A stretch of 64,000 nucleotides of DNA from the IMG/VR virus record IMGVR_UViG_3300006217_000002. One strand, 5' to 3'. Positions 5,978 to 53,837 of this stretch are shown one piece after another. A model generated the notes under the pieces. That model was not told the DNA's origin, ran no database searches, and was given only the letters and a program-made list of their open reading frames with translations. Each line of letters opens with the position of its first letter. The stretch's first letter is position 1. The position numbers and the translations under genes are program-made. The stretch is from a virus. Taxonomy: Duplodnaviria; Heunggongvirae; Uroviricota; Caudoviricetes.

Positions 5978-5985
5978 CACAATTA

Positions 5986-6016
5986 AAAGAGAGGAGCAAT
6001 TCGCTCCTCTCTTTTA
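5986..6016 (+). terminator. Intrinsic terminator hairpin
   Basis: aaagagaggagcaattcgctcctctctttt followed by an AT run after the CDS stop. Confidence 0.6.
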
Positions 6017-6145
6017 ATATTTATATATTATTATAATAATATGAATCCTGATTAAGATTCGAAATCCTTAGCCTGATTAAGCTTTAAGGTAAAATTATGG
6101 GCAAATTGTGATATATTAAGTTAAATAAAAAAGGAGGAATGGAAT

Positions 6146-14656: not shown

Positions 14657-14977
14657 ATGGTTGAATTTATTAAAAGTCCTTTGATAGTAATGGACGCCTG
14701 TAAATTTAATGGGAAATTTACTGATGGTATTACTGTAAAGGAGGCAGTAGAGGAATGTATTGAAAATTCCCCGTCAGAAAATGGTAGCATCAGGCTAGTC
14801 AATTCTAATCCTAAAGGATTGGATTATCAATTTGACTTTAATGAAAAGAATCTCGAAAATAAGTATCATGAATATGAAGATACTATTGGAAATTATAAGG
14901 TGCTATCTATAGAAGCAACTCAATACTACATGTCAATGACATTTCATGTTACGATAATATTTAAGGAGGTAAACTAG
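14657..14977 (+). CDS. Hypothetical protein
   Basis: ORF with AAGGAGG RBS. Confidence 0.45.
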   Translation: MVEFIKSPLIVMDACKFNGKFTDGITVKEAVEECIENSPSENGSIRLVNSNPKGLDYQFDFNEKNLENKYHEYEDTIGNYKVLSIEATQYYMSMTFHVTIIFKEVN

Positions 14978-21277: not shown

Positions 21278-21340
21278 CAACGACGGGAGGGGGCCATTCG
21301 GTCCTCTCCCTATATTTTTACATTTAAAGGAGGAATGATA

Positions 21341-22846
21341 ATGTCAGCAATACTTAACAAATCCAAAGATCCATTGGTTCAAATTTATCCATTCAGTTTA
21401 ACATATGCGATATTTGAAGATTATGATATGGCCATAAGTATCTATGTTCCTGGGTTAGCTGAAGCAATAAAAACTTTGAATGAGAATGAACAGTTAGCTC
21501 TTAAATTGAGATTCGAAGAAAATAAAACTCTTGATGAAGTGGGAGAAGGATTAGGAGGTAAAAGCAGAGAAAGAGTTCGTCAAATAATTGCTAAAGCATT
21601 ACGTAGACTCAAACATCCATCCAGATCATCAAAATTTATTCCTGTAAGTAAAGAAGAGCTTAGGAATGAAGTGAATAAAGTCAGAGAAGAAAACGATACA
21701 TTGAAAAGAACTATCGGCGGTCTTACTGAGTTATTAGAGAAAGCCGGTGTTATATCTAAAGAAAAGAAACTCGAGATCGATTCAAGAAATGATTTATGGG
21801 AGGACTCCGATGAAATATCGATAGAAGAATTGGAATTATCAGTTAGATCTTATAACTGTCTAAAACGCGCAGGTGTAGAAACATTATTTGATCTCTCTTT
21901 GATGACAGAACAGGATCTCATGAATGTGAGAAATCTTGGAAGATCATCATTTGATGAAATCGTTAAGAAAATGAAAGAACATAACCATACACTTGCCGAT
22001 GGTTTAGATGAAAATAGCATCATTAGTCTTGAATACCATCATCAGATTAAAAGACGATTGATGGAGTTGAATATCAGAACAGTGGATCAGTTAACAGCTA
22101 TGTCAGTAGATGACATAATTAATGCTGGTTTCAATTCGTCCGATATAAAAGCTATAAAGAATGCGTTAATAAGCGTTGGTAAAGAATTATCACATAATGA
22201 AGATGTGATGAAGTTTGATATAGATGATGAAATAAAGGATATACTTCGTCAACACGAATTGCTTACGGTGGCTAGCCTCATAGATAAGTATTACGAAGAC
22301 TATCTGGAAGATGGCGTACTTGATTCATATGGAATGAAAGAGCTTGCTACTTATATGTCTCTAAGAGGTACTCCATTAAATCATAAACCGGATCCATTGA
22401 TTACTAAAACAGAAAAACACATGTACGGTTGTAATGTTACTGATTTAGGCATCACTACTCGTACTGTTGAATTACTAAATGGATCTGGTATATTCACTTT
22501 AGATAGCTTAGTAAGTATCACAGCTAAAAAGGCTAGGAGTATATTGTCGGCAGAAAAAGATCATGTGGATACATTACTGAAAGAACTTATCTACAAAATG
22601 AATGAAAGAGGCCTTCATTTCGCATATACTAAAGAAGACGTCATGAATATCAAGTTGATGAATGCTAACATTTCATTCTATACAAAATCAATACTCAATC
22701 TGTCAATGATATATACTGTTAAAGACTTACTTGAATATGACAGGTTAGATGAGCTTAAAAAGAAAGAGGGTGAGATACATGAAATAGATAGATTAGTTCA
22801 CGATTGTAAAGAATTACTTGAACATGCAGTGGTAGTAGAACCGTAA
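21341..22846 (+). CDS. Fusion of sigma-70 region 4 with RNAP alpha-CTD-like repeats; putative transcription-hijacking factor
   Basis: N-terminal [41 protein letters not shown] matches sigma region 4.1/4.2. [25 protein letters not shown]...[14 protein letters not shown] matches the alpha-CTD HhH. About four more degenerate repeats follow. No sigma region 2. Confidence 0.75.
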
Positions 22847-23715: not shown

Positions 23716-24006
23716 ATGGATTATCCGTATAATTTAATGGCTAGGCTATTTTGGACCAACGACGTTTGGAGTTTAAAATTTAATTGGGAAGAATTGGAGA
23801 AATGCATATTTAGTCTTCCTGGGGATGAGTTCCATGCTATATATCTACGTTTCAGAAGAAACTATTCTTTCAAAGATATAGGAGAGGAATTCGAAAGTAC
23901 TGCATCATATGGGCGTCACATAGTCGACTACGCATTGCGTCGGTTAAGAAGACCTGAGTACTTATTAAGATATATGAAAGACATGGAAACAGAAGGCTCT
24001 CAATAG
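23716..24006 (+). CDS. Small sigma-70 region-4-like HTH protein
   Basis: FKDIGEEFESTASYGRHIVDYALRRLRRPEY resembles sigma r4 or an ECF sigma C-terminus. Confidence 0.45.
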   Translation: MDYPYNLMARLFWTNDVWSLKFNWEELEKCIFSLPGDEFHAIYLRFRRNYSFKDIGEEFESTASYGRHIVDYALRRLRRPEYLLRYMKDMETEGSQ

Positions 24007-24071: not shown

Positions 24072-24227
24072 TTAATATCCACTATGTCCAGGCTGGCTAT
24101 TACGAGCATCAGCTAATCTATTATTTATTTCAGCCTGTATTAATGCTTCACGATCTTTATTCAATTCTTTTTGTACAGCTTCATCAATTCGTTTTTGCTC
24201 TTCTGACGTGAACGTAATGTTACTCAT
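24072..24227 (-). CDS. Small hypothetical protein (51 aa from the ATG with an RBS)
   Basis: AAAGGAG 9 nt upstream on the minus strand. Confidence 0.35.
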   Translation of the reverse strand: MSNITFTSEEQKRIDEAVQKELNKDREALIQAEINNRLADARNSQPGHSGY

Positions 24228-24291
24228 AACAGATTTTCTCCTTTCAAGTATTTTCAATTTACTATTATGAGTAATATAAAAATAATATTAT

Positions 24292-24325
24292 AATAGGTAT
24301 GGGGTTAATTAACCCCATACCTATT
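24292..24325. repeat. Perfect 34-bp palindrome (17/17) downstream of the DGR target gene
   Basis: aataggtatggggttaattaaccccatacctatt. Confidence 0.7.
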
Positions 24326-24401
24326 ATCAATCTTTTCGAATCTTTTATAAATCAAATAAGGGGACACACTGCTCGCGTTTCCCCTCTTACTACGCTACGC
24401 T

Positions 24402-24431
24402 GCGTAATTCACCCTTTCTTCGACATTACGC
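24402..24431 (-). other. Short hairpin overlapping the stop codon of the DGR target gene, just beyond the VR end (24443). The target gene stop is at 24423-24425.
   Basis: gcgtaat...attacgc, a 7-bp stem. Confidence 0.45.
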
Positions 24432-26045
24432 TGCAGGCTTACAAGAAACAGCCGCGCCAATGCCCCAGTACGAGTTCGAAACGAGATCGTCCAAGGTGCA
24501 GGCGAACGCGCCGCAGTAAGAACCATCGTCCGAACGACCACCGAACAAAGCGAAACGTTTATCATTATTTCTATACCATAAACGATCACAAAAGTCAGTA
24601 GTAGAACTTCCATTGAGACTATTAGGGAATAGTCCGAATCTATTAACAAGCATATTGTTAATATATCCGTAGAAATAACTAGGATCATCAGGATTAGTAA
24701 TACCAGTTTGTCCAGCAAGACGAATAGTAGTATCAATGTATCCTTCACCTGTCTCGTTATAATCAGTAGCTGTTGATCCATCATGCTTACCTTTGGTCAT
24801 CTTGACTTTCAAGACTCCATTATCAAGAATCATACCATGCGTACGTTTCCATACATTTCCCCAGAAGTTTTCAATACCAAATACCTTAACAGCAAGGTTA
24901 TCTGCTGAATATCCGAAGAACAATCCCTTGTTATCAAGAGTACCGGAATTGAGTACTCCCTGATCACCTGAACCAGGGGCTTTATTATAGTAACCATTCA
25001 TATTACCATTACCAAATACAGCCTGTGTATTAGTACTCTTTCCAATTAATATTAAGAGTAAACTGAGGAGTTGACGATCTGAAAGTACATCAATATCCCA
25101 ACATGTTTTACCACTCGGATTGTTAGCACGGCATTCAGTAATCTGAATAGTTCCAGTTTGAGATCTTGTAGGAGCTTTACCGCTAAGAGATCTAATTTTA
25201 TCTGATACTAACGCTCCATCATATGCAGCTCTGTATAGATAAGGAATAATTTTACCATTTGCGTCAGTATGAGCAAATGCAAAATAGTTCTCATCGATCT
25301 TACTAGCAGCAAAATAAAACTTAGGTTTATTGGAATTAGAAGTATCAATCTTGATATAAACAGTAGGAATACCTACCATTACATTACCAGCAAGAGAATC
25401 ACTAGTAATGTTAGATGCTGATCCATCCTTCTTCTTACTGTAATCATTTGGATTAAGTTCATATGCTACTGTACCATCAAAGTTCAGTACACATGGTTTC
25501 AGATTCTTAATGAACCATGCATCTGCCCAGTCACCATAATCGAATGCTCCTGCTGTGAAATCCATGTGTACAGGTTCATAGTTTGCATTCGCACCAAGAT
25601 AACGAACTTTACAATCAGGGTCTGATTCATTGAGATTAAGCTCAAATCCAAATACATCAGGATTTGTCTCTACGATAGAATCGTCCATAAAGATAGGAGT
25701 TGGGTTTCCATCATCATTGAATCCAACTACCTGACCCTTTGTTCCTGTAATCTTACTCTGTGCTCCAACATCTGATGCACTTAATGAAATATCCTTATCA
25801 AGTGATTTTCCATTAATAGTTCTGGATGTTGGAACTGCTCCTACTTGTTCTGCTGTAACCTCATGAGGGTTATCCTTGTTTGTGGAATGACCGTTGTCAA
25901 CATCTCCATCAAGAGATACGGTAACGGTTGAACCTGACTGGGTAATATCGATATTTTTACCACCTACAAGTTCGATTGCGCTCTGGCCGTTAATTGTGGC
26001 GTCTCTGCCACGTACTGGTCCTAAATCTAATTCTTTAGCAGCCAT
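24426..26045 (-). CDS. DGR target protein. Tail-fibre or receptor-binding-like, with a C-terminal CLec-type variable region.
   Basis: The C-terminus ...ALFGGRSDDGSYCGAFACTLDDLVSNSYWGIGAAVS contains the VR. The N-terminus is paralogous to the ORF at 63445. Confidence 0.8.
   Translation of the reverse strand: MAAKELDLGPVRGRDATINGQSAIELVGGKNIDITQSGSTVTVSLDGDVDNGHSTNKDNPHEVTAEQVGAVPTSRTINGKSLDKDISLSASDVGAQSKITGTKGQVVGFNDDGNPTPIFMDDSIVETNPDVFGFELNLNESDPDCKVRYLGANANYEPVHMDFTAGAFDYGDWADAWFIKNLKPCVLNFDGTVAYELNPNDYSKKKDGSASNITSDSLAGNVMVGIPTVYIKIDTSNSNKPKFYFAASKIDENYFAFAHTDANGKIIPYLYRAAYDGALVSDKIRSLSGKAPTRSQTGTIQITECRANNPSGKTCWDIDVLSDRQLLSLLLILIGKSTNTQAVFGNGNMNGYYNKAPGSGDQGVLNSGTLDNKGLFFGYSADNLAVKVFGIENFWGNVWKRTHGMILDNGVLKVKMTKGKHDGSTATDYNETGEGYIDTTIRLAGQTGITNPDDPSYFYGYINNMLVNRFGLFPNSLNGSSTTDFCDRLWYRNNDKRFALFGGRSDDGSYCGAFACTLDDLVSNSYWGIGAAVSCKPAA
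24443..24552 (-). repeat. DGR variable repeat (VR) encoding the C-terminal ~36 aa of the target protein
   Basis: The reverse complement aligns over 110 nt with the TR at 31166-31275. All 11 mismatches are at TR adenines. Confidence 0.9.
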
Positions 26046-26143
26046 AAATTAATACCGTCCTTTCTTATTTTCTTTCCTAATATATTAGAAAATAGAATAC
26101 CAATATATTAGTTTACATTAATTTGTTCTTTTTAAAAACGGAA

Positions 26144-26422
26144 TCATTCCAATGTTGCAATAAGATGCCCATCAGAATTGATATGCATATTTGGAGCTTC
26201 ATCACCGGTATATGTTGCAATAAGATGCCCATCACTTTCTCTAATATCAAAAGCAATGAATCCAGTCCCTCCACCACCAATTTTCTTAATAATTTCGGCA
26301 ACTTTCTCTTCGAACGTATTCTGACTAACATAAGCTCCTTTAAGTGCGGAAAAAACAGCTTCAAGCAATGCGTCAAGACCATTTTCGTCAATAACACTAA
26401 TCTTATTAGTTGTATCAGCCAT
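26144..26422 (-). CDS. Small acidic protein containing a tandem SDGHLIAT repeat
   Basis: AGGAGG RBS on the minus strand. A 23-bp direct repeat atgttgcaataagatgcccatca lies at 26151-26173 and 26209-26231. Confidence 0.5.
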   Translation of the reverse strand: MADTTNKISVIDENGLDALLEAVFSALKGAYVSQNTFEEKVAEIIKKIGGGGTGFIAFDIRESDGHLIATYTGDEAPNMHINSDGHLIATLE

Positions 26423-26575
26423 TTTAATCTACCTCCTTAATTATATTTTTTGAGAGATGAAATTAAGTTCCATCAGATTATATCCTGGTTTAAATAAAAG
26501 AGCACCATTAATACTATAATTTTCAGTACAGCTTCTTAATTTATAATCTCTATATAGAAAGGTGAGTGTTTTAAT

Positions 26576-29500
26576 ATGGATGAAATGAGATTTGAAGACA
26601 TCGGATATGGATCACATATATTAGAATATCCCAAAGATTTATCATTTTCTGAAAATGTTAAGTACGCAAGCGCTGAATTCAATAAACTTCATACAAGAAA
26701 AGTGAGACTTCCTGATGGTAAAGGAAATGTAATTTATCTATTAACTAATACATTCGATTCTGCTATTAGGATGATTAATTCCAATCACTTTATCATTCCT
26801 CCTTCATATACAAAAATTTTTTATCCTCAGTTTTCTGCAGGATCATTTATGGGAAAACGATATAAAGTTAATACTGGTAAATTGAAAAAGGATAGAGATG
26901 TGGTTATCAAATCGAAGACTAGGTTAAAACCATATCCTACAAAGAAACTTCAGAAGAGTATCGAAAATATTTTGTTTTCTACATCTGATATTTATGAAAC
27001 ATTCAAGCCTATAATGGATAGATATTCTATTAAACGTTGCTATGAAGAGTTCATGTCTAATTTCGTAGATGTGTTAACAAAACTAACTCCTGAAGTTACC
27101 CAACAGAAAGATGATCCTAACTGGAATAACAGGCTGATCATCATTGATGCAGATTCATTTAGCTTTAAAAAAGATGCTAAGTTAAATGATAATAAAACCA
27201 ATCCTCTATATCTAATATATCTTGCATTTCTGAGAAATAGAGATTTAAGTAATATGAATGTAGATATAGATATGATGATTTGTTCAAAGAATATGTTTCT
27301 GAAGTTCAATCCAGCAAAGACAACTATGAAGACTTGGAGCGTATTTAGACAAGGATTATTCAGAATCATAAATGCAAATTTGGATGATTATACAGAAAAA
27401 CTTTCTGAAGAGGAGAAGAACGAATTAGCAGAAACTGCAAACGATAAAATTGTAACAAATATAGTCAAGGATGCTACTGATCCTTATACTAAGAATGTAT
27501 CAGCATCTACTAAAGCTGTAGTAAATAATGCAGTTGAGAATAAACTTCGTAAACAAGTTGCGGTTGTTGTGGCTCAGGATCAGGAGATAAAAAAGACAAT
27601 AGGTGATGAAGAACCTAAACCTGACTTATTCAAGCAGAGCTTACAAAAACAATCTGCTGGATCTTCATTAATAAATCGAAATCCTATATCTAATCCTCTT
27701 GATAAGAAACATGAGAAATTATTTAAGAATATAGCAGGATATCAATCACTTGGATCTGATACTGGGCAGTATATTGACGATGACGATGAAGACTTCGATT
27801 ATCCTTATGAAGATGAGGATGAAGAAGGAGTGGAAGAATTCGAGGATGGTATCAAGACTGATGCTCAAGATCTTCTTATTAATGATGCTGACATTGCTGA
27901 AGAGATACTAGATGAAATTCAGGATAAGGTAGTTCCTTTGAAGAATGATAAGAATTCTCCTGTTAATTCAGCAAGAGATAAGAAGTTACGTGAAGAGCAA
28001 AAGAAAGTAGTAGTTCAAAATGAAACTATCGAACAGATACTTGAAAGAGATACATCGAATGTAAAAATTCAGGAAGAAGATAAATCTAGTGTAATGCATA
28101 CTACCAATCAGAATATGCATAAGATTAGATTTGCTAATTTTGATAAGACATACATCGATGAGATATACATGAGAGATATTGTGAAATGTTTCGATATGTT
28201 GAAAGATCAGGAGAGTCCTTTCTATATTACAAATATAGATATCAAAGATACATCTACTACACTTGATTTCAAAGATACCTGGACTGTTTCATTGAAAGAT
28301 GAATTAGGTAAGAAGCATACAATTAGAGTAGATATACCTAAGTTCCAAAATGACCGATTTATGTTAATCAACGGAACAAGGTTTATGATCTTAAAACAGA
28401 ACTTCTACAATCCTCTTGTCAAAGATACACCCGATACTGTTATCCTTACTACGAATTACAATAAGATTACTATACAGCGTAGATCCACTAAGTCTCTTGG
28501 TACTATAGAAAGAATCTTTAGCTTGATAAAGAAGAGCGGAGATTCTGATATGTTTATGACTGGAGATTCTAGCAAGGGAAACATGAAGTATATTTCTTCT
28601 CTTGAATACGATGAATTATCAAGAAGACTTTTCAGATTTAAGTCTGATAATTGTTTATTATGTTTCTCTAGAGACTATATTAAGGATAATATGGAAGATC
28701 AAATTCCTTCTGATATAAAAGGTAACGAGTTCTTTATAGGAATGGAAGGTAAAACTCCTGTACTGATAGATGAAGATACTGGATTGGATAGAACTGGAAG
28801 AACTATAGTCGATATTATAGAAGCTAATCTACCAGATCAATACAAAAAGATCTTTGATTCAATTAAAGGACCTAAACAGTCTATGTTTGTCGAGGGTAAA
28901 CTTGCAGGGGAATTTATTCCTATTATTTCTACATTGATAGTATGGATTGGATTAACAAAAGCTCTTGATAAAATGAATATTACTTGGAGATTTGATCCAA
29001 ATGCTAAACGAGTTCCTCAATCTACATCAAGTAAGAGGTATATAAGATTTGCTGATGGAGTACTTGAATATGAAGCTAAGACGTATGCAGAATTGATTCT
29101 TAATGGATTAGCTAAAATGAAACCAGAACAGTTCAAGTTTGAAGATTTCAACAGCGAAGTGGGATATGATGATTTCATTTACTCTCAATGGGGTAGTTAT
29201 AATGGAATTACAGAGTTGAAAAACTTTAAAGAATTCCTTATTGATCCTATAACAAAGAGAGTATGTCAGGATATGATGCTACCTGATGATCCAGCTGGAT
29301 TGTTAATAAGAGCAGTACAGTTATTATCTGACAATGCATATACCTCAAAAGCTTCTGATAAATCATACAGAACTAGATCTGTTGAAATTATTGCAGCAAT
29401 ACTTTATTCATGCTTAGCAACTCAATACAGAGCATACGTTAAATCAGGACGAAGAATACCTATGACACTGAATCAACGATGTGTAATATCTAAACTTATT

Positions 29501-31030
29501 GCTGAGAAGACTGTTGAACCTTATTCTACTCTTAATCCTGTAACTGAAGTTAGTAAAACGCATACTATATCTACGAAGGGATATAAAGGATCTAACTCAG
29601 AACATTCATATGATGAAGAGAAAAGATCTTATGATCCTTCAGCAATTGGAAAGTTGGCCATACAAACTTCTCCTGATAAGAATGTAGGTATAAATAGAGT
29701 GCTAGTTGTAGAACCTACAATTTCGAATGTAAGAGGATACAGGGAACCTGTTGATGATATTGAAGAACTCAAAGATGTTAATATCTTCTCTCCTGTAGAA
29801 ATGTTAACACCTGCAACAGCTAGAGTAGAAGATCCTATTCGTGTGTCCATTGGTGGTAAACAGTCAGGTCACGTTGTTCCTGTAGCAAATGCTTCCCCAT
29901 CATTAGTTTCTAATGGTTTTGATGAAGCATTACAGTTCCATTTATCTGATGACTTCGTAGTGAATGCTGAAGAAGATGGGAAGATAATTGAAATAAATGA
30001 AGAAGTTGGATTCATGGTAGTTCAGTATAAATCGGGTAAGAATAAAGCCATCAATATCAAACCTGAGGTTGTAAAGAACAGCGGTGGAGGATTCTATATC
30101 TCTAATAAGTTGAGACCAACTAAGACTAAAGTTGGAGAGACGTTTAAGAAAGACGAACCTCTCGCATATCATGATAAGTATTTCCAATATTCTAAGATTA
30201 ATGGTCTTAGATATGCTATTGGTCCATTAGCGAAGATAGCATTCATGTCAACATATAATACATATGAAGATGCAGGTATATGTACAGAAAGTTTGGCAGA
30301 ACGTATGAAGACTAGCGTTGTATATCAGGAACTTGGTAAGTTTAAGAAAAATAACAATATCATCTCTATGGTAGAAGTTGGGGACCATGTTAACATTGGA
30401 GATGTCTTAATCAAGTTTGATGTTTCTGTTGAAGATAATGAGTTAGCGAAATATTTATCAAAACTTTCAGATGATAATGCTGCTTTATTAGAAGAGGAAA
30501 CAAAAAATGATATCAAGACAATGCATGCTGGTAAAGTTATTGCTATTAAGGTATATACGTTATTAGCACCTGAACAACTATCTGAATCATTAGGAAGAGT
30601 AGTAAAGAAATATTTTGATAAGAGTACTACTAAGAAAGAATTCCTTGAGAAGTATGATCAAACTCCAGGAATTATGAAAGCTGGATATCTACTAACTGAT
30701 TCTACTGAACCTGTTAAGAGTAGATATAATTCAATAAAGGGTATTAAAGGAATAGATGTACTTATTGAAATTTATATCGAGCATGATGACGTTATGGGTG
30801 TTGGCGATAAGATCGCATTGTATTCAGCTAATAAACAGATCGTATCTGAAGTAATCCCTAAAGGTTGGGAACCGTACTCTGAGTTTAGGCCTGAGGAGGA
30901 AATATCTGCTTTCTCATCTCCTGGTACTATTGCAAGACGAATGACTCCAGGTTCATTATCTGTATCAGCATGTATGAAGTGTTTGATAGAGCTAAAGAGA
31001 AAAATAAAAAGTGAAATAAAGTATAGGTAA
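26576..31030 (+). CDS. Highly divergent RNA polymerase beta-like subunit (1484 aa)
   Basis: VGDKIALYSANKQIVSEVIPKGWEPY...PGTIARRMTPGSL (~30803-30960) resembles the rpoB motif GDKxAGRHGNKGV.SKI.P..DMPY...PSRMN.GQ. Confidence 0.5.
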   Translation: MDEMRFEDIGYGSHILEYPKDLSFSENVKYASAEFNKLHTRKVRLPDGKGNVIYLLTNTFDSAIRMINSNHFIIPPSYTKIFYPQFSAGSFMGKRYKVNTGKLKKDRDVVIKSKTRLKPYPTKKLQKSIENILFSTSDIYETFKPIMDRYSIKRCYEEFMSNFVDVLTKLTPEVTQQKDDPNWNNRLIIIDADSFSFKKDAKLNDNKTNPLYLIYLAFLRNRDLSNMNVDIDMMICSKNMFLKFNPAKTTMKTWSVFRQGLFRIINANLDDYTEKLSEEEKNELAETANDKIVTNIVKDATDPYTKNVSASTKAVVNNAVENKLRKQVAVVVAQDQEIKKTIGDEEPKPDLFKQSLQKQSAGSSLINRNPISNPLDKKHEKLFKNIAGYQSLGSDTGQYIDDDDEDFDYPYEDEDEEGVEEFEDGIKTDAQDLLINDADIAEEILDEIQDKVVPLKNDKNSPVNSARDKKLREEQKKVVVQNETIEQILERDTSNVKIQEEDKSSVMHTTNQNMHKIRFANFDKTYIDEIYMRDIVKCFDMLKDQESPFYITNIDIKDTSTTLDFKDTWTVSLKDELGKKHTIRVDIPKFQNDRFMLINGTRFMILKQNFYNPLVKDTPDTVILTTNYNKITIQRRSTKSLGTIERIFSLIKKSGDSDMFMTGDSSKGNMKYISSLEYDELSRRLFRFKSDNCLLCFSRDYIKDNMEDQIPSDIKGNEFFIGMEGKTPVLIDEDTGLDRTGRTIVDIIEANLPDQYKKIFDSIKGPKQSMFVEGKLAGEFIPIISTLIVWIGLTKALDKMNITWRFDPNAKRVPQSTSSKRYIRFADGVLEYEAKTYAELILNGLAKMKPEQFKFEDFNSEVGYDDFIYSQWGSYNGITELKNFKEFLIDPITKRVCQDMMLPDDPAGLLIRAVQLLSDNAYTSKASDKSYRTRSVEIIAAILYSCLATQYRAYVKSGRRIPMTLNQRCVISKLIAEKTVEPYSTLNPVTEVSKTHTISTKGYKGSNSEHSYDEEKRSYDPSAIGKLAIQTSPDKNVGINRVLVVEPTISNVRGYREPVDDIEELKDVNIFSPVEMLTPATARVEDPIRVSIGGKQSGHVVPVANASPSLVSNGFDEALQFHLSDDFVVNAEEDGKIIEINEEVGFMVVQYKSGKNKAINIKPEVVKNSGGGFYISNKLRPTKTKVGETFKKDEPLAYHDKYFQYSKINGLRYAIGPLAKIAFMSTYNTYEDAGICTESLAERMKTSVVYQELGKFKKNNNIISMVEVGDHVNIGDVLIKFDVSVEDNELAKYLSKLSDDNAALLEEETKNDIKTMHAGKVIAIKVYTLLAPEQLSESLGRVVKKYFDKSTTKKEFLEKYDQTPGIMKAGYLLTDSTEPVKSRYNSIKGIKGIDVLIEIYIEHDDVMGVGDKIALYSANKQIVSEVIPKGWEPYSEFRPEEEISAFSSPGTIARRMTPGSLSVSACMKCLIELKRKIKSEIKYR

Positions 31031-31034
31031 CATT

Positions 31035-31064
31035 AAAGCGGTGGGATTTACGTCCCACCGCTTG
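31035..31064 (+). terminator. Hairpin after the beta-like gene
   Basis: aaagcggtgggatttacgtcccaccgcttg. Confidence 0.5.
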
Positions 31065-31165
31065 ATGTATTTAAGAGAGTTTGTCAATGAATTATTTTAT
31101 TTATCGAACGCGCCAACATATATTTATTGTTCACAGAACAATAAGGGATTTGGAGTGCGTGTTCC

Positions 31166-31275
31166 CGCTTTGTTCGGTGGTAATTCGAACAATGGTTCTA
31201 ACTGCGGCGCGTTCGCCTGCAACTTGAACAATCTCGTTTCGAACTCGAACTGGAACATTGGCGCGGCTGTTTCTT
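31166..31275 (+). repeat. DGR template repeat (TR)
   Basis: 110 nt identical to the VR except at 11 adenines. Adenine-rich AAC/AAT codons in the VR reading frame. Confidence 0.9.
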
Positions 31276-31427
31276 TTATCCTCGTCGGGGCGTAAAACCC
31301 TTTTTGAATGCACTCTATCTTCCTCACCTCTTGGTGAAAATTTGCCCCATGCGTTGTTCGTTAGTAGCCTGTCGAAAGCGAAATAAGGGGATAAAAAGAG
31401 AGAACAGGCTATATCTAAAATGGAGGT

Positions 31428-32543
31428 TTGAATATGAAATCTTATAAAAATCTCTGGAAAATATTTATTTCAGAGAACACTATAAGGTATTCTATTTCAA
31501 AAGGTGCCATTGGGAAAAAGAAAAGGCGTGAAGTTAGAAAAATCATGAAAGATGTTGACGGTTACGTCGATGTCATTCATGATTACGCCTTGAATTTCCA
31601 TAATTATCATCATGAACCAGTCAAAATCCGTGATGGATGTAGTGGTAAGGAGCGAGAGATAATCGTTCCTAAATTTAATGAACACGTAATCCATCATATG
31701 GTGGTTTACGCGATGATGCCTTTGCTTACTAAAGGCATGTATAAACATACTTATTCTTCAATTCCTGGAAGAGGTCTTCATAAAGGAATGAAAAGAATCA
31801 GAACGTGGATTGACAATGATCCTAAAAATGTAAAGTATTGTCTTAAACTGGACATAAAAAAGTTCTTTAACTCGATTGATCATGAAATATTAATGAATAA
31901 ATTTAGAAAATATATTCATGACAATAAATTCTTGAAAATACTTCAAGAAATAGTTGATGCATCTCCTAATGGAATTCCTTTGGGATTTTATACTTCCCAT
32001 TGGTTTGCTAATTGGCTACTTCAACCTTTAGACCATTTTATCAAAGAAGAACTTCATATTGTTCACTATATAAGATATATGGATGATATGATTTTATTCG
32101 GGTCTAATAAGAGGCAATTGCATAAAGCTCGTAAAAAGATAGAAGAGTTTTTAAGTAATCTTAAATTAAAGATTAAAGATAATTGGCAATTGTTTAGATT
32201 CGATTATATCAAAAATGGAAAACATCATGGTCGTCCACTTGATTTCATAGGATTCAAATTCTATAGGGATAGAACTATTTTAAGGAAGAATATTATGTTA
32301 AGACTTACAAAGAAAGCGAGGAAAATCGAAAAGAAAGGTAAGTTTACAATTCATGACGCTCACCAAATGATGTCCTATTTAGGATGGATAGACTGGACTG
32401 ATACGTACAAAGTGTATACAAAGTACGTAGCTCCCTACATTAACTTTAAGAAGTGTAGAAAGTACATTTCACAGTATGATAAGAAACAGAGAAGACTTTT
32501 AAAAGAATTAAAGGAGGAATATAATTATGGAGCTGAATTTTAA
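31428..32543 (+). CDS. DGR reverse transcriptase
   Basis: IPGRGLHKGM, LDIKKFFNSIDHEIL, and YIRYMDDMILFG (YMDD, ~32076-32090). Sits 150 bp downstream of the TR. Confidence 0.9.
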   Translation: MNMKSYKNLWKIFISENTIRYSISKGAIGKKKRREVRKIMKDVDGYVDVIHDYALNFHNYHHEPVKIRDGCSGKEREIIVPKFNEHVIHHMVVYAMMPLLTKGMYKHTYSSIPGRGLHKGMKRIRTWIDNDPKNVKYCLKLDIKKFFNSIDHEILMNKFRKYIHDNKFLKILQEIVDASPNGIPLGFYTSHWFANWLLQPLDHFIKEELHIVHYIRYMDDMILFGSNKRQLHKARKKIEEFLSNLKLKIKDNWQLFRFDYIKNGKHHGRPLDFIGFKFYRDRTILRKNIMLRLTKKARKIEKKGKFTIHDAHQMMSYLGWIDWTDTYKVYTKYVAPYINFKKCRKYISQYDKKQRRLLKELKEEYNYGAEF

Positions 32544-32874
32544 GAAATCCCAGTCTCTAACTGAACCTGCATTGGTTGATAATACGTCTTCTAAGTATAC
32601 AACTTATATTAGACGTAATATTGAACTTGTAGAGAAGACAGAGAACAATTCAGAAGGTGGAGAGCCTACAACTGTTTCTGTATATGAATACGAAGAGGCT
32701 AAACTCACGAAACAGGAATATCTCATCTACCTTGCTGAACAGGCATCCGAGAGTAACAATACTGAGGCTCAGATGGCCATCGCTGAGCTTGCAGAATCTC
32801 TGGAAACTAACTACACAGAGCTTCAGTTAGCTCTTGCAGAGATGGCTGAAACAGTAACTACTATGATTAATTAA
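32527..32874 (+). CDS. Acidic hypothetical protein downstream of the RT
   Basis: ORF with AAGGAGG RBS. Confidence 0.45.
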   Translation: MELNFKKSQSLTEPALVDNTSSKYTTYIRRNIELVEKTENNSEGGEPTTVSVYEYEEAKLTKQEYLIYLAEQASESNNTEAQMAIAELAESLETNYTELQLALAEMAETVTTMIN

Positions 32875-33041: not shown

Positions 33042-33272
33042 ATGGTATGCCCCAGATGTTTTGGTAATGATGTGACACCTATAGGTACGACTCATTATGT
33101 GTGTAATAATCCTGATTGTAAACAAGAAGATGGATCACACGTTCAATTCAGAATGGTTCAGGATGATAAAGTTCATTTTCCTTATAACCAGATATTCGTA
33201 AACAGAGGAGTACATGAATTCTATAGATTGCCATATTTGACATTGCCATCAGTAGGAGTGAAAACTGTATAG
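33042..33272 (+). CDS. Zinc-ribbon small protein
   Basis: CPRCFGND...CNNPDCKQ. Confidence 0.45.
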   Translation: MVCPRCFGNDVTPIGTTHYVCNNPDCKQEDGSHVQFRMVQDDKVHFPYNQIFVNRGVHEFYRLPYLTLPSVGVKTV

Positions 33273-33281
33273 AACAAGTAA

Positions 33282-33312
33282 ATATCAGGGGAGGATGATC
33301 CTCCCCTGATAT
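33282..33312 (+). terminator. Intrinsic terminator
   Basis: atatcaggggaggatgatcctcccctgatat plus a T-run. Confidence 0.65.
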
Positions 33313-33363
33313 TTTTATTTATATATTATTACTATATAAAAATAATGAAGGAGGAATATATAT

Positions 33364-34771: not shown

Positions 34772-35107
34772 ATGAACATTGCACAAATTAAAGAAATGCT
34801 TAAAACTCCTCAATATGGGTTTTTAAAAGAGAATCAGCATCTTGGTTCAAATGTTATTTTGCTGACTCTTGGAGGTAGTCATGCATATGGAATGAATAAC
34901 GAAAATTCAGATCTTGATGTGAGAGGAATATCTTTAAATTCAAAAGAGGAAGTTTTACTTGGAAGAGACTTTGAGCAGGTAGTAAACGTAGAGACGGATA
35001 CAACTGTGTATTCATTCAATAAAATGATTCAGCTTCTTACATCCAATAACCCTAATACGATTGAAATACTTGGATGCAGAAATGATCATTATGTCTACCT
35101 AACTTAG
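34772..35107 (+). CDS. Minimal nucleotidyltransferase (MNT, Pol-beta fold). It ends at an in-frame TAG.
   Basis: LGGSHAYGMNNENSDLDVRGI (GS...DxD) at ~34871-34920. RBS AAGGAGG. Confidence 0.7.
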   Translation: MNIAQIKEMLKTPQYGFLKENQHLGSNVILLTLGGSHAYGMNNENSDLDVRGISLNSKEEVLLGRDFEQVVNVETDTTVYSFNKMIQLLTSNNPNTIEILGCRNDHYVYLT

Positions 35108-35254
35108 TTAGGTAGACAATTAATCGAAAAGAGGAAAATATTTCTATCTAAAATTTGTATTCATACATTTGCAGGATATGCTGGTTCACAGCTGAGGAGA
35201 TTGGAAAATAAATCAAATCGATTGGTTGGGCAAGCTCAACAGGAGCAGTATATC

Positions 35255-35800
35255 ATGAAGAGCGTCGCAAATGCACGATATGATTTTAAACATAGATATT
35301 ATCCTCACAATGAAGGCGGCATTAAGCTTTATATAGACGAAGCTGTACAGGAAGGATTCGAAACAGAGATATTTATTGATTGTAACTTGGAACATTATCC
35401 TTTACGTGATTATGCTGGAATGATTAATGAAATGAAATCTATTGTTAATCATTATGGCAAGATAGGTAAGCGAAACGAGAACGCAATTAGTCATAATAAG
35501 TTAGGCAAACATATGGCTCATTTGATCAGACTATATATGATGGCTATCGATATACTGGAAAAAGAGGAGATAATCACATATCGTGAAAACGAGCATGATC
35601 TATTAATGAGCATAAGGAATGGAGAGTATTTAGATTCAAATCGTCAACCTACTTCAGTATTCTATGATATTCTGAATGAATATGAGAAGAGATTTGATTA
35701 TGCTGTAGAAAATACTTCATTACCTGATAAGCCTAACATGAAAGAGATCGATGAGTTCAGAGCTTATGTAAATGAAATGATCGTGAAAGGAGAAATATAA
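35255..35800 (+). CDS. HEPN-like or NTase-associated helical domain protein. It lies in the same frame as the MNT; the track starts it at TTG 35201.
   Basis: Rx6H motif KRNENAISHN (~35470-35495). AGGAG 9 nt upstream of ATG 35255. No stop between 35108 and 35254 in the MNT frame. Confidence 0.55.
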   Translation: MKSVANARYDFKHRYYPHNEGGIKLYIDEAVQEGFETEIFIDCNLEHYPLRDYAGMINEMKSIVNHYGKIGKRNENAISHNKLGKHMAHLIRLYMMAIDILEKEEIITYRENEHDLLMSIRNGEYLDSNRQPTSVFYDILNEYEKRFDYAVENTSLPDKPNMKEIDEFRAYVNEMIVKGEI

Positions 35801-39903: not shown

Positions 39904-39916
39904 CTGAAAAGATCAT

Positions 39917-39951
39917 AATAAGGAAGGGAGGATGATCCTCCCTTCCTTATT
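39917..39951. terminator. Bidirectional terminator
   Basis: aataaggaagggaggatgatcctcccttccttatt. Confidence 0.65.
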
Positions 39952-39956
39952 ATTGT

Positions 39957-41573
39957 TTATGATGTACTTCTAACGAATTCTACATCTTTCTTAGGAATAT
40001 CTTTAATTTCAGGATAACTCTTAGATCTTGCTCTATGAGTTCTAACGTAATAGCCGTTTTTATCCTTAGCTAAAGAGCAAGCAGTTGATTTCCCGAATAA
40101 CTTATAAAATTCATTTCTCTCAGATGAAGTAATCGCATTTATTTCTTTCTTCATCTTTTCATACGCCTTTTTACTTTCAGTTATCGGTTCCTCTTTCTTA
40201 GGATCTTCTTTCTTCTCTTCCTTTGGAGTAGTTTCTTTCTTAGGTTTATTGACAGCAGCTTTCTTTTCATCAACTACTTCAATCTTGGAAAGTTCTTCGT
40301 TGATGATCTTATTTACTCTATTCTGGAATTCTCCAAAGTTTGTAAGATATTCATCTAAGATCTTCTCAAGTTCTGTTAAGTCTTCCTGTAACTGTTTCTT
40401 TACGATTGTAGATGTATTAGGATCTGCTATATCAGATTTATATTCCTTAATTAATGCACGAGCCCTGTGAATGTTTGTTTTATGAACATCATTAATAGAA
40501 TCTTGAACGATCATAACAATTATATCCTGTCTTGTTCTTTCTTTTTTAAAACGAGAATTAATCATCTTTTCAGATTCTTTATCAAGTTTCTTAAGGCCGT
40601 TTAAAAGCTGAGGACCAAATCCATACATACGAGCAAAGTTATCTGCAAATGCTTCTGAAAATTCTTGTCTTGTAAACTTATCTTTGTCAGATTCAATCAT
40701 CCTTCTAACTTTTTCCAGCTTCTTCTGTTGAACTTTTTCTTTACCTAAGATTTTATCTCTAATGGCATTGAATATAGAACTTACAAGAGTTCCTACCAAT
40801 AATACTCCAAAAATACAAAAGATAACAATAAAATTGTTTTTATGCTTATCTATAAATTTCTTTTCATTTTTATTGATAGCATGCTTTCTATCTGTAAGAT
40901 ATTTAGATAGAATATTCACTTCTGTGTATTTAATATCTACTAAAGCAGGATCGATAGAATGACCAAATTCATGTAACATAACTGCCATGATTTCTTCTTC
41001 ACTCAATGCTCTTATTAAGCCGAGAGAAAGATATACATTCATTCTTACTGATTTACTCTTGTCATAGAATCCTTTATCTGTCACAAGACCTTCAATGGGA
41101 AATCTATCTGCATGATAAATTTCTGCGTTTAGAATTCTACTCTCAAACATCTTCTCTTTGGAATTATATTTCTCAATATAAGGTTCTATAGAAACATCTC
41201 TAAAACCAAATACTTTTGAGAATTCATCTTCGAGTTGTTTGAATAGTTGATTCTTCCAGAAAGCTTTTGGATCAAAGTATTTAACTTTGGTTTTAGTTAC
41301 AGGCTCTCCTTTCTTTCTTTTATTATCAGCATCCTTATTATTTTCAATTCCTTTATCCTGCTCGGCAATTTGAGATTCCAATAGATCTTTGATCTTTTTG
41401 ATAGTTTCTACAATTGGCATCACACTTTCTTTACCGTTAGCAAATACTGCCTCTGTATAAAACTGATCAATAGACTTCTCGACTTCTACAGATTCATCAA
41501 ACAAATTTAAAGAGAAATTAGAAGATGGATCTGATTTCTTTTCAGGGATGGTTAGATTAATAACGTCATACAT
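39957..41573 (-). CDS. Membrane zinc metalloprotease (HExxH) with a lysine-rich C-terminal tail
   Basis: IMAVMLHEFGHSIDP. TM helix FIVIFCIFGVLLVGTLVSSIF. AAGGAG RBS on the minus strand. Confidence 0.6.
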   Translation of the reverse strand: MYDVINLTIPEKKSDPSSNFSLNLFDESVEVEKSIDQFYTEAVFANGKESVMPIVETIKKIKDLLESQIAEQDKGIENNKDADNKRKKGEPVTKTKVKYFDPKAFWKNQLFKQLEDEFSKVFGFRDVSIEPYIEKYNSKEKMFESRILNAEIYHADRFPIEGLVTDKGFYDKSKSVRMNVYLSLGLIRALSEEEIMAVMLHEFGHSIDPALVDIKYTEVNILSKYLTDRKHAINKNEKKFIDKHKNNFIVIFCIFGVLLVGTLVSSIFNAIRDKILGKEKVQQKKLEKVRRMIESDKDKFTRQEFSEAFADNFARMYGFGPQLLNGLKKLDKESEKMINSRFKKERTRQDIIVMIVQDSINDVHKTNIHRARALIKEYKSDIADPNTSTIVKKQLQEDLTELEKILDEYLTNFGEFQNRVNKIINEELSKIEVVDEKKAAVNKPKKETTPKEEKKEDPKKEEPITESKKAYEKMKKEINAITSSERNEFYKLFGKSTACSLAKDKNGYYVRTHRARSKSYPEIKDIPKKDVEFVRSTS

Positions 41574-42468: not shown

Positions 42469-42680
42469 AAGCTAAATTTATAGGTAAAAATGGTTCAATG
42501 GGATTTAAGAGGGGTAAAGTTTATGATTTAAGATGTGAGATAAAACCAGGTACATGGAATGGGAGGTAGACGCATTGTATTTATATACTTATATAGTAAA
42601 TGTGATAATTCCTAGTGTCCGTATGAATCGCTTGAATCAGTGTTAGCAAATTGGGAAATCCTTGGGTAGAATAAGTGAAT

Positions 42681-42712
42681 AATAGAGAGGTGGGATATCC
42701 CACCTCTCTATT
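42681..42712 (+). terminator. Intrinsic terminator
   Basis: aatagagaggtgggatatcccacctctctatt. Confidence 0.6.
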
Positions 42713-42786
42713 ATGTTTATCCTAATAATTATTTTGAAGATATATTATCTAAATAATAATAGAAAATATTTTGGAGGTTTATATAG

Positions 42787-53796: not shown

Positions 53797-53837
53797 AATA
53801 AAGGAGGGGTATTGATACCCCTCCTTTATTTTTTTAT
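53797..53837 (+). terminator. Intrinsic terminator
   Basis: aataaaggaggggtattgatacccctcctttatt plus a T-run. Confidence 0.7.

Follow-up and report, generated by a model that had tools for sequence, protein, structure and literature searches.

The locus analyzed here lies in a window of 64 kb (the whole stretch of DNA that was studied) and consists of a minus-strand island of three genes, a plus-strand gene for an RNA polymerase (RNAP) beta-like subunit and a plus-strand unit that includes a reverse transcriptase (RT). The central gene of the island (24426..26045, minus strand) encodes a 539-aa tail-fiber or receptor-binding protein with a predicted C-terminal variable domain that has a C-type-lectin (CLec) fold. 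This protein, hereafter the target, matches the phrog_5302 tail protein (5.6e-84) and, in its N-terminal part, also tail-fiber PHROGs. Its AlphaFold model has a mean pLDDT of 87, with low confidence in the N-terminal anchoring region of ~130 residues. The best Foldseek matches of the model in the PDB are TaqVP (5vf4; E 1.2e-12, probability 1.0, ~390 aligned columns), followed by Mtd (1yu0-1yu4) and TvpA (2y3c). By these best matches, the modeled fold is closest to the solved variable proteins of diversity-generating retroelements (DGRs), as expected from the CLec fold that had been proposed for the C-terminus. The two other genes of the island are small minus-strand ORFs without a match in family searches: p92 (26144..26422), directly upstream of the target, and p51 (24072..24227), downstream of it. 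Gene calls exist for the former in all 10 other assemblies and for the latter likewise in independent assemblies; both are conserved in two closer, diverged relatives, L119 and L120 (p51 at 94% and 78%, respectively).

The RNAP beta-like subunit gene (26576..31030, plus strand; 1484 aa) matches PF00562 (1.6e-5) and phrog_14872 (1.3e-141), and the best phage matches of its product come from the jumbo phages SA1, PBS1 and phiR1-37 (~30-32% identity). As originally noted, this gene separates the template repeat (TR) from the variable repeat (VR); it is no part of the DGR but a marker of a rearranged block. A terminator-like hairpin after it (31036..31063, plus strand) marks the left boundary of the transcription unit that comprises the TR, the RT, orf115 and p76 and is closed by a terminator hairpin (33280-33314, plus strand). 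The p76 gene (33042-33272, plus strand) encodes a Cys-rich small protein with no family match, the position of which is kept in L119 (97%), L120 (85%) and the less closely related loci L085/L086 (57%).

The RT (31434..32543, plus strand; 369 aa) starts with an ATG 158 nt past the end of the TR and contains the DGR-type motif LDIKKFFNSIDH and the YMDD active site, both of which had been predicted. It matches RVT_1 (8e-21) and phrog_1423 (3e-102), whereas none of the group II, retron and DRT models reaches the cut-off, and its profile of model matches resembles that of Brt from phage BPP-1. In the alignment with Brt, motif 4 reads LGFYTSH instead of the usual LGxxxSQ. Phage relatives include the RTs of Butyrivibrio phage Arawn, Faecalibacterium phage FP_Epona, Lactobacillus phage LBR48 and crAss-like phages. 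A scan for adenine-biased mismatches detected a TR/VR pair in 64 of the 80 IMG/VR loci that encode relatives of the RT; the VR is on the TR-RT strand in all 64, in most of them ~100-350 nt upstream. The RT belongs to an Avd-less DGR lineage.

The spacer that separates the TR from the RT gene contains a structured RNA (31325..31398, plus strand) that resembles RT-18 (Rfam RF03021): in a local search, it scores 40.3 bits (E 9.6e-6), the gathering score being 41.3. The RT-18 scores in L119 (40.3 bits) and L120 (36.6 bits) are also under the threshold. At the equivalent spacer position, Rfam RT models pass their own gathering thresholds in other loci, RT-18 in L024, L016 and L009, RT-4 in FP_Epona and RT-17 in L095. 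In BPP-1, RT-10 has been located between TR and brt by Weinberg et al. (PMC5737381). The spacer RNA is a candidate DGR RNA element that might serve in RT recruitment or priming.

Neither an Avd nor an HRDC gene was found, nor any protein that belongs to a known accessory class, in agreement with the lack of an Avd-like gene pointed out originally; bRT is inactive without Avd (PMC6182149). The conserved, small acidic orf115 (32527..32874, plus strand), which overlaps the RT stop codon by 17 nt, shows no similarity to Avd (hhalign of its family against bAvd, probability 0.05) and no match in Pfam, NCBIfam, PADLOC or the PDB. Its model, a beta-hairpin with a long helix (pLDDT 77), produced no match in a fold search either. 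Homologs are located at, or overlap, the 3' end of the RT gene in most of the related loci and in 4 of the 4 further protein clusters sampled; in L087, a homolog is encoded right after a tail-fiber gene, with no RT nearby. The orf115 gene is a candidate for a lineage-specific accessory gene or for a tail-module gene.

Template and variable repeats

The TR (31166..31275, plus strand) is non-coding and invariant, and no gene call overlaps it in the 10 other assemblies. Aligned with the reverse complement of 24443-24552, the VR (minus strand; codons ~499-535 of the target), it shows 11 mismatches over 110 ungapped nucleotides. All 11 fall on TR adenines (A to G in seven cases, to C in two and to T in two) and the 89 non-A positions are all identical, precisely the pattern that the original prediction had claimed. 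Given the 21 adenines in the TR, the probability that 11 random mismatch positions all hit A is 8.3e-10. In the target frame, the 21 adenines are all contained in ten AAC/AAT codons and one ATT codon, which correspond to 10 Asn-templated and one Ile-templated hypervariable codons of the VR; each of the 11 mismatches occupies the first or second position of a codon in the target ORF, at AAC/AAT template codons.

The 3' end of the VR is an 18-nt, A-free, GC-rich segment, TTGGCGCGGCTGTTTCTT (24443..24460, minus strand), that is identical to TR positions 31258-31275, and the similarity between the two repeats stops right after it. By analogy with IMH/IMH* of BPP-1 (PMC5758913), this segment probably has an IMH-like role. 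Downstream of the VR, there is a conserved element (24358..24414, minus strand) that consists of the GGGTGAAT motif (24414-24407), hairpin 1 (24408-24389) and hairpin 2 (24386-24358), the latter with G-rich and C-rich arms (GAGGGGAAAC...GTCCCCTT). The same order of motifs is repeated after the VR in L007, L005, L008, L011, L014, L015, L017, L018 and L031, and, averaged over 29 loci, the 70-nt stretch that follows the VR has an MFE of -23.8 kcal/mol, as against -11.2 kcal/mol for the one that follows the TR. This element is a candidate target-recognition and/or terminator structure. The 7-bp hairpin originally proposed next to the VR exists (GCGTAAT, 24431-24425, with ATTACGC, 24408-24402), but the relatives favor the two hairpins of the conserved element. 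The perfect palindrome between the target and p51, previously given as 34 bp, measures 38 bp (24290..24327), with arms of 19+19 nt that are 100% complementary. It is terminator-like on either strand, one of the roles originally suggested for it, and not specific to the DGR: the window contains ~25 long perfect intergenic hairpins of this kind, several of them with the same ATAATA...TATTAT arms. Seen among these, it is just one more terminator-type hairpin of the genome, of the bidirectional sort.

Variation among genomes and activity of the system

Together with 10 further independent assemblies, the window yields 11 genomes with identical RT, identical TR and the same layout, in every one of which RT, orf115 and TR are intact. 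As anticipated for a functional DGR, the VR varies in this population, with 11 distinct VRs in the 11 genomes. Of the 22 variable VR columns, 21 correspond to TR adenines; none of the 21 adenines is constant, and the sites are multi-allelic. The sole variable non-A column is a G-to-T change in one genome (L108), the other 88 of the 89 non-A positions being unchanged. The rest of the 9.6 kb contains ~83 variable columns (~1%) outside one mosaic segment; mosaic recombination in the N-terminal part of the target is found in L101. In protein cluster P0001, the VR peptides differ in 16 of the 16 members read, nearly always at A-templated residues. In L104, the VR is identical to the TR; the cause is a non-mutagenic event, unless the assembly is at fault.

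The TR/VR pattern, the relatives of the RT, the target fold and the population VRs all agree with the original reading of the core elements as a DGR. Very probably, this is a complete, currently active Avd-less DGR of the 'TR-RT' type in an uncultivated jumbo phage (contigs with an identical RT reach 227 kb, and the contig of a close relative 282 kb), the inverted remote layout of which probably derives from a secondary inversion.

It seems very unlikely that the VR variation stems from another DGR elsewhere in the >200-kb genome, or from recombination of tail-fiber alleles, rather than from the RT at 31434-32543. The genome measures at least 205-282 kb, of which the window covers 64 kb, and recombination did affect the N-terminal part of the target in L101. 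Nevertheless, the sites that vary are exactly those of the adenines in the invariant TR, which directly precedes this RT; the 64-kb window contains neither another TR-like copy nor another RT, and recombination cannot confine changes to A-templated positions or yield 3-4 alleles per site. A relic DGR, inactive today, that altered the VR only formerly, perhaps at a time when the inversion had not yet occurred, the alleles being old standing variation, would be compatible with the unmutated VR of L104, with SH in place of SQ in RT motif 4 and with the fact that the VR variation is seen here among assembled genomes. Such a relic is extremely improbable: each VR is unique in genomes that are near-identical elsewhere, the non-A positions of the VR show no decay apart from the single column mentioned above, and RT, orf115 and TR have all been preserved. 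Furthermore, the inversion predates the split from L119/L120, and this split goes much further back than the strain-level divergence of the 11 genomes, which implies that diversification continued after the flip.

Origin of the inverted layout

In the window, the VR and the TR are separated by 6.6 kb and reside on opposite strands, with the RNAP beta-like gene in between. The loci L085/L086 have the order RNAPbeta(-)|target-VR-TR-RT-orf115-p76(+), that is, a compact target-TR-RT cassette, directly upstream of which the RNAP beta ortholog is encoded on the strand opposite to that in the window. By contrast, L119 and L120, with RTs 99.5% and 83% identical to that of the window, respectively, have the flipped layout, and the mismatches of their TR/VR pairs are A-biased (12/14 and 16/19). 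Because the flipped layout common to L119/L120 still diversifies, retrohoming in this lineage appears to work in trans, without a co-oriented or adjacent target.

Most simply, the RNAP-beta/target block was probably inverted secondarily, which gave rise to the flipped layout; one of the breakpoints would separate the VR-flanking hairpins from the TR. Separate acquisition of TR-RT-orf115 beside RNAP beta, followed by adoption of the remote tail-fiber gene, or rearrangement in L085/L086 instead, is a less probable but not negligible explanation. A single inversion leaves unexplained the position and orientation of p51, which is present in L085/L086 in another placement, and at least two rearrangements must therefore separate the lineages; in addition, no p92 homolog was detected in L085/L086, p503, p145 and p96 were not found there, and tail-fiber genes are mosaic, with the L119 target only 71% identical to that of the window compared with 92-99% for its neighbors. 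However, all the RT-relative loci with a TR/VR pair carry the VR on the TR-RT strand, mostly close upstream, and the neighbors in L085/L086 are the same (RNAP beta, RT, orf115 and p76), with the RNAP-beta/target pair exactly reversed in order and strand. Moreover, each repeat kept its own flank, the lineage-typical element being still found beside the VR and the TR-upstream flank beside the TR. These observations argue for the inversion.

Proposed mechanism and comparison with known DGRs

In the proposed mechanism, the plus-strand unit between the terminators at 31036-31063 and 33280-33314 would be transcribed and, by extension from the biochemistry of BPP-1, the RT would bind the RT-18-like spacer RNA (31325-31398) and copy the TR into cDNA with misincorporation at the 21 adenines; the adenine-specific outcome of this last step is what is observed here. 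The cDNA would then take the place of the VR (24443-24552) in the tail-fiber gene, at its 3' end, 6.6 kb off and on the other strand, possibly guided by the 18-nt A-free 3' homology and the conserved GGTGAAT-plus-two-hairpin element beside the VR. As a result, 10 Asn-templated codons and one Ile-templated codon would be randomized on the CLec-fold domain, where the population data reveal hypervariability; 11 randomized codons allow up to ~2e12 peptides.

Compared with the BPP-1 system (mtd-VR / avd / TR / brt), the window DGR shares adenine-specific transfer from TR to VR with AAC/AAT template codons and changes at codon positions 1-2, a VR in the last codons of a tail-fiber receptor-binding protein of the CLec fold (Mtd being among the structural matches), a 3' homology that is GC-rich and A-free, with hairpins after it in the VR but not in the TR, and an RT with YxDD that aligns with Brt through the conserved motifs. 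The differences are the lack of Avd, the target 6.6 kb off on the opposite strand beyond the RNAP beta gene, an RT only 25% identical to Brt with SH for SQ in motif 4, and the phage itself, a jumbo phage that has a multisubunit RNAP of its own as opposed to a 42-kb temperate podovirus. In TaqVP of Thermus aquaticus, as in the target, the CLec fold carries the variable residues at its C-terminal end, but the sequence identity is just 13-15% and the window target has an additional ~130-residue N-terminal tail-fiber anchoring region.

The closest RTs from isolates (37-41% identity) are those of FP_Epona, Arawn and LBR48, which serve here as examples of architecture A, a TR-RT core with no accessory gene (Wu et al. 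2018, PMC5758913). In these phages, as in the window, the TR immediately precedes the RT and leaves no space for avd, the RT stop is overlapped or followed by a small acidic ORF, and the target is an Mtd-like tail fiber; FP_Epona also has a structured RNA of the RT family (RT-4) in the spacer. Their target, however, is immediately upstream on the same strand, unlike the inverted, remote target of the window. By description, orf115 is reminiscent of CH1 of Bacteroides DGRs, a small, acidic, motif-less protein found only in DGRs without avd, HRDC and MSL (PMC5758913): both are small and acidic and belong to Avd-less cassettes, but CH1 has 160-169 aa, whereas the orf115 family mostly has 81-116 aa.

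The features originally singled out as unusual, the inverted remote target and the lack of Avd, are indeed present but fall within documented variants of DGRs, for which remote and opposite-strand targets, the Avd-less architecture A and action in trans have already been described (Wu et al. 2018, PMC5758913). In the same study, 45 of 372 DGRs had non-adjacent targets and, in two phage-associated DGRs, the only target was ~20 kb away. Similarly to the window, in DGRs of Treponema, Legionella and phages a single TR acts on a non-adjacent VR, and components on different strands need separate transcription units. The kind of system described here is thus already known and its layout is uncommon; comparison with a related lineage traces the separation of its parts to a rearrangement, and population data document its continued activity thereafter.

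The repeat pair and its variation in phage populations

The reverse complement of the variable repeat (VR, 24443-24552, minus strand) aligns without gaps to the template repeat (TR, 31166-31275, plus strand) over 110 nt, and all 11 mismatches are located at plus-strand adenines, exactly as the original prediction had claimed. With 21 adenines among the 110 nt of the TR, the probability that 11 random mismatches all fall on A is 8.3e-10. Each of the changes affects codon position 1 or 2 of the target, a 539-aa tail-fibre-like gene (24426-26045, minus strand) in which the VR occupies approximately codons 499-535. Read in the target frame, the TR is ALFGGNSNNGSNCGAFACNLNNLVSNSNWNIGAAVS, with all 21 adenines contained in ten AAC/AAT codons and one ATT codon, so that the predicted run of asparagine codons is borne out. 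This is the classic design of a diversity-generating retroelement (DGR) and, as calculated from the genetic code, ~15^10 x 4, or roughly 2e12, peptides are possible from the TR codons. No second copy of the repeat was detected in the 64-kb window. An 84-aa ORF that overlaps the TR (31041-31295) was rejected as a gene: its match to a tail-protein PHROG arises solely from reading the TR in the frame of the target, and the respective gene call is absent in the 10 other assemblies fetched. At the 3' end, the VR and the TR share an identical, A-free segment of 18 nt, beyond which the sequences diverge. Judging from the sequence, this end of the VR is a putative IMH/IMH*-like boundary that is GC-rich and A-free; an inverted repeat follows at the VR and is missing at the TR. 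Averaged over 29 loci, the MFE is -23.8 kcal/mol after VRs vs -11.2 kcal/mol after TRs.

In the assembly index, the exact RT protein of this element appears in 72 blocks; ten places were fetched and compared with the window (11 genomes altogether). The gene order of the window is kept in all ten assemblies, in contigs of up to 227 kb. The TR is represented by a single allele across the 11 genomes and the VR by 11 alleles. Among the 22 variable columns of the VR, 21 correspond to TR adenines, and each of the 21 TR adenines varies, with three or four alleles at most sites; in individual genomes, 8-17 of the 21 adenines are changed in the VR (L104, one of the fetched assemblies, left out). Outside the VR, there are about 83 variable columns in the 9.6-kb alignment, and 64 more come from the mosaic N-terminal segment of one genome. 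The same pattern is apparent in the proteins. The 90%-identity cluster of the target includes 43 members, and in the 16 that were read, all VR peptides are distinct; the hypervariable residues (504, 506, 507, 510, 517, 519, 520, 524, 526, 528 and 529) are exactly those encoded by A-templated codons. The DGR is active at the population level represented by these assemblies: the VR keeps diversifying while the TR remains constant. The variation at A-templated positions that had been proposed as a population test is thus present, and the interpretation of the locus as a DGR is supported.

Several individual features of these genomes deserve mention. In L104 (positions 3012-3121 of ERZ15121602 NODE_68, equivalent to 24443-24552 of the window), the core of the VR reproduces the TR exactly (0 of 21 adenines changed), and the VR flanks are normal; the cause is either an assembly artefact arising at a hypervariable site or a homing or gene-conversion event free of mutagenesis. 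In L101, the N-terminal anchoring region of the target (window 25881-26024) contains a block of 64 substitutions that does not extend beyond this region, a recombinational mosaic; the divergent target of L119, set among much more similar flanking genes (see below), is a comparable case. Finally, residue 488 of the target (window 24582-24584), which is encoded ~30 nt upstream of the VR, beyond the TR homology, is R, Y or C among members of the 90% cluster and may belong to the second shell of the binding site and be under selection.

Reverse transcriptase, target protein and the host phage

The RT ORF (31434-32543, plus strand) carries LDIKKFFNSIDH and YMDD; its probable start is the ATG at 31434, which is preceded by GGAGG and located 158 nt after the end of the TR. 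The protein matches Pfam RVT_1 and phrog_1423 (3e-102), scores far below every curated cut-off of the group II intron, retron and defence-RT (DRT) models, and shows a profile of weak matches that mirrors that of Brt, the RT of Bordetella phage BPP-1 that was run as a control. Motif 4 of DGR-type RTs has the signature [LIV]GxxxSQ. The RT of the window and that of its diverged relative L085 have LGFYTSH, with H for Q, and SQ is present in Arawn, Epona, cr55_1 and Brt; evidently, activity is retained despite the SH variant. The nearest RTs from isolates, with 35-41% identity, are those of Butyrivibrio phage Arawn, Faecalibacterium phage FP_Epona, Lactobacillus phage LBR48 and crAss-like phages. 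A nucleotide search with the 8.6-kb locus against 50,697 phage records yielded no match and, therefore, this phage has no sequenced close relative among isolates.

A simple, purpose-written scan for A-biased repeats, run on the 80 closest IMG/VR loci, detected a TR/VR pair in 64; the loci without a pair (16) are mostly contigs that end just upstream of the RT. Together with the YMDD motif and the phrog_1423 match, these pairs substantiate the proposed DGR-type RT next to the TR. The VRs are co-stranded with the TR and RT in all 64 loci that have a pair, and in most of these, the VR is located 100-350 nt upstream of the TR, a space too small for avd. Two loci deviate from this pattern: L023 has its two VRs at 3-5 kb downstream of the RT, and in L082 there is an additional VR ~9.6 kb upstream; in the scan of relatives, only the window has an inverted VR. 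L023 is a 244-kb contig of a very large phage (IMGVR_UViG_3300033463_000006) that encodes a 49% identical RT of the same clade (L023:9653-14853); its VRs (12902-13006 and 14749-14853) are on the RT strand, downstream of the RT, in two tandem target genes.

The target matches a PHROG 'tail protein' family at 5.6e-84, and its N-terminal segments are tail-fibre-like. The AlphaFold model, built with 48 homologs, has a mean pLDDT of 87 and, among solved structures, is closest to three variable proteins of DGRs, TaqVP (E 1.2e-12), Mtd and TvpA. Because the model best matches these three proteins, the prediction of a C-type-lectin fold at the C-terminus of the target holds; in DGR targets, this fold, like the Ig fold, tolerates variation. 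A minus-strand gene for a 538-aa protein (39957-41573), considered as a second, paralogous target, was rejected given that it has no similarity to the target and no match to the TR.

The RNAP beta-like subunit (26576-31030, plus strand) has its closest relatives in PBS1/AR9-like and other jumbo phages, with ~30-32% identity, and the window additionally encodes a sigma/alpha-CTD fusion, a divergent PolB, topoisomerase II, a CCA-adding enzyme, Thg1 and other genes of the large-phage type. The fusion is a 503-aa protein (21335-22846) that combines Pfam sigma-70 region 4 with the RNA polymerase alpha C-terminal domain (phrog_351), and a separate 96-aa protein containing sigma region 4 is encoded at 23716-24006; these are unusual transcription factors near the RNAP beta gene. 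GC skew tracks the gene strand in the window. Scans for sigma-70 promoters around the TR and the target found no more sites than shuffled controls, a result that says little about a phage with its own RNAP. Another variable gene of this population codes for an RlaP-like nucleotidyltransferase (34772-35107 and 35201-35800), which is split into ORFs of 111 aa and 181/199 aa in the window, L100, L103, L106 and L108 and is a single 342-aa ORF in L101, L102, L105 and L107; the split is a polymorphic disruption inside one phage population.

A cassette probably split by an inversion

The gene order in the window, with the target on the minus strand followed by the RNAP beta-like gene and the TR-RT-orf115-p76 block (p76, 33042-33272), all on the plus strand, confirms the prediction that the VR is located ~6.6 kb away from the TR, on the opposite strand and beyond the RNAP beta-like gene. 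In two IMG/VR contigs, L085 and L086, the RNAP beta gene is on the minus strand and is followed by a compact, plus-strand arrangement of target, VR, TR, RT, orf115 and p76. The identity between these contigs and the window is 55-71% for RNAP beta, 58-60% for the RT, 50% for the target and 57% for p76. The RNAP-beta/target pair is exactly reversed between the two arrangements, in both order and strand, with one breakpoint between the VR and the TR. Because the rest of the RT clade has the compact form, the window layout is best explained by an old rearrangement, namely, inversion of the RNAP-beta/target block next to a compact cassette's TR-RT unit, and separate acquisition of the TR-RT unit, as opposed to inversion of an ancestral cassette, appears improbable. 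The position and orientation of p51 (24072-24227, minus strand in the window) in L085/L086 are not explicable by one inversion and, therefore, at least two events separate the two lineages.

The VR retains its flanking element (24414-24358), which consists of a GGGTGAAT motif followed by hairpin 1 and then by a G-rich/C-rich hairpin 2, and the TR retains its upstream flank. The arrangement of the VR-flank element is almost identical in the relative L007 and recognisable in at least nine relatives. The conservation of the hairpins was judged from per-sequence folds and inspection because the MAFFT alignment of the VR-downstream regions is too gappy, and RNAalifold found no consensus structure in it.

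The flipped layout is also present in L119, a 282.5-kb contig with a 99.5% identical RT, a target that is only 71% identical and flanking genes with 92-99% identity, and in L120, with an 83% identical RT. Both have A-biased TR/VR pairs (12 of 14 and 16 of 19 mismatches at adenines, respectively). Since the flipped layout is shared with these two genomes and accompanied by A-biased pairs, the flip is older than the strain-level divergence of the 11 genomes, and diversification went on afterwards. In L085/L086, the RNAP beta gene is split by ~1.3 kb between residues 1073 and 1093 (L085:3793-9478); possible explanations for the interruption are an intron, an intein and the insertion of a homing endonuclease, as in PBS1. 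A tRNA gene is present at 2181-2265 of L085.

A perfect palindrome between the target and p51 had been noted as a candidate cruciform or terminator. It measures 38 bp (24290-24327) rather than the 34 bp originally stated, and resembles a terminator when read from either strand. The window contains about 25 long, perfect intergenic hairpins with arms of 11-19 bp, several of which have ATAATA...TATTAT outer arms (e.g., 5982-6018, 33280-33314, 39915-39953, 42679-42714 and 53797-53830), and the TR-RT-orf115-p76 block is bracketed by two hairpins, at 31036-31063 and 33280-33314. These hairpins are probably bidirectional terminators recognised in the transcription programme of the phage. As one among about 25 similar elements, the palindrome is an ordinary terminator that is irrelevant to the DGR; the terminator reading stands and the DGR cruciform is rejected.

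Accessory functions and comparison with known DGRs

Neither Avd (PF05635) nor HRDC was matched in about 50 window ORFs scanned individually or among the top 25 families of a 77-ORF scan. The absence of an Avd-like gene, which had been noted before, is in agreement with the lack of space between the VR and the TR in related loci. Accordingly, the locus does not have the BPP-1-type architecture B (avd-TR-RT) and, as far as Avd and HRDC are concerned, fits architecture A of Wu et al. (2018), a TR-RT core that lacks avd, HRDC, MSL and CH1; here, the TR directly precedes the RT.

A conserved small acidic ORF, orf115 (32527-32874, plus strand), shares 17 nt with the end of the RT gene, including the stop codon. 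Homologs are found at the same RT-adjacent position in most related loci and in all four further protein clusters sampled from the 98 obtained in a profile search; in L023, no homolog directly follows the RT. The family has no match in Pfam, NCBIfam, PADLOC or PDB sequences, so that assignment to XkdW or any other family in these collections was rejected. In the model (pLDDT 77), a long beta-hairpin leads into a single long helix, and the fold search gave no significant match. Avd proteins (PF05635) are basic four-helix-bundle pentamers. With an hhalign probability of 0.05 against the BPP-1 Avd, a different predicted fold and an acidic composition, orf115 is not a divergent Avd. It is, at best, doubtfully a functional replacement for Avd, in which case it would represent a new class of DGR accessory factors for cDNA synthesis or homing. 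Such a role would explain why, upon splitting of the cassette, orf115 remained beside the TR-RT unit instead of following the tail-fibre gene, and why it is intact in L119 and L120, where it is conserved in the flipped layout. These observations favour a DGR function, whereas the L087 homolog directly follows a tail-fibre gene and has neither an RT nor a TR within 21 kb, and Firmicutes-type phages place homologs at tail-module gene sites (XkdW/XkdX), which argues against it. The L087 tail fibre (L087:8891-11731) is an 847-aa protein whose C-terminal domain is 43% identical to the target; L087 is a DGR-less relative that helps assign orf115 to either the DGR or the tail module. In L018 (4419-4934) and L019 (1264-1779), an orf115-like N-terminus is fused to a W/Y/D-rich C-terminal domain of ~100 aa. 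The resulting 171-aa protein is close to the reported size of the CH1 accessory gene, a small acidic accessory candidate (Wu et al., PMC5758913).

The TR-RT spacer encodes another potential component. The RNA at 31325-31398 scores 40.3 bits against Rfam RT-18 (RF03021), slightly under the gathering threshold of 41.3 (E 9.6e-6 locally). At the same spacer, L024 (51.7), L016 (44.4) and L009 (43.2) pass the threshold, and L119 and L120 score 40.3 and 36.6, respectively; overall, RT-18, RT-17 or RT-4 are detected above threshold at this position in relatives. In BPP-1, RT-10 is located between the TR and brt, and a priming role has been proposed (Weinberg et al., PMC5737381); the BPP-1 spacer supplies the priming 2'-OH and binds Avd (PMC6182149). 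The orphan Rfam motifs RT-18 and RT-17 and the conserved RT-adjacent ORF are hereby linked to an Avd-less DGR lineage, and are concrete candidates for components that enable RT function without Avd.

Altogether, the element is a textbook DGR that leaves the known mechanism unchanged. DGRs are very common in gut phages (PMC8241571), and the catalogue of Wu et al. includes the TR-RT core without an accessory gene (architecture A), a lineage without avd, non-adjacent targets in 45 of 372 DGRs, components on opposite strands, and two phage-associated DGRs with the sole target ~20 kb away (PMC5758913). Because remote or opposite-strand targets and Avd-less cassettes are already catalogued, this locus is a further example of a known DGR type: the inverted, remote target and the lack of Avd are both present as predicted, but they do not qualify as unusual. 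Two features are less common, namely, the presence in a jumbo phage that has an RNAP of its own and the clean record of a cassette that was split and flipped and is still active. In a survey of jumbo phages, none of the 224 genomes was reported to have DGR-type lectin (FGS) domains (PMC7824862); with the present locus, a DGR is placed in a jumbo phage that encodes a multisubunit RNA polymerase of its own. In a 2026 study of the BPP-1 DGR in E. coli, editing differed up to 44-fold between target orientations, and orientation relative to the replication fork dictated the preferred target orientation (PMC12875486). The locus described here amounts to a natural experiment on target orientation, in which an ancestral compact cassette was probably split, the target was flipped and diversification lasted through speciation; comparison of the flipped lineage with the related unflipped one could test the replication-orientation effect in nature.
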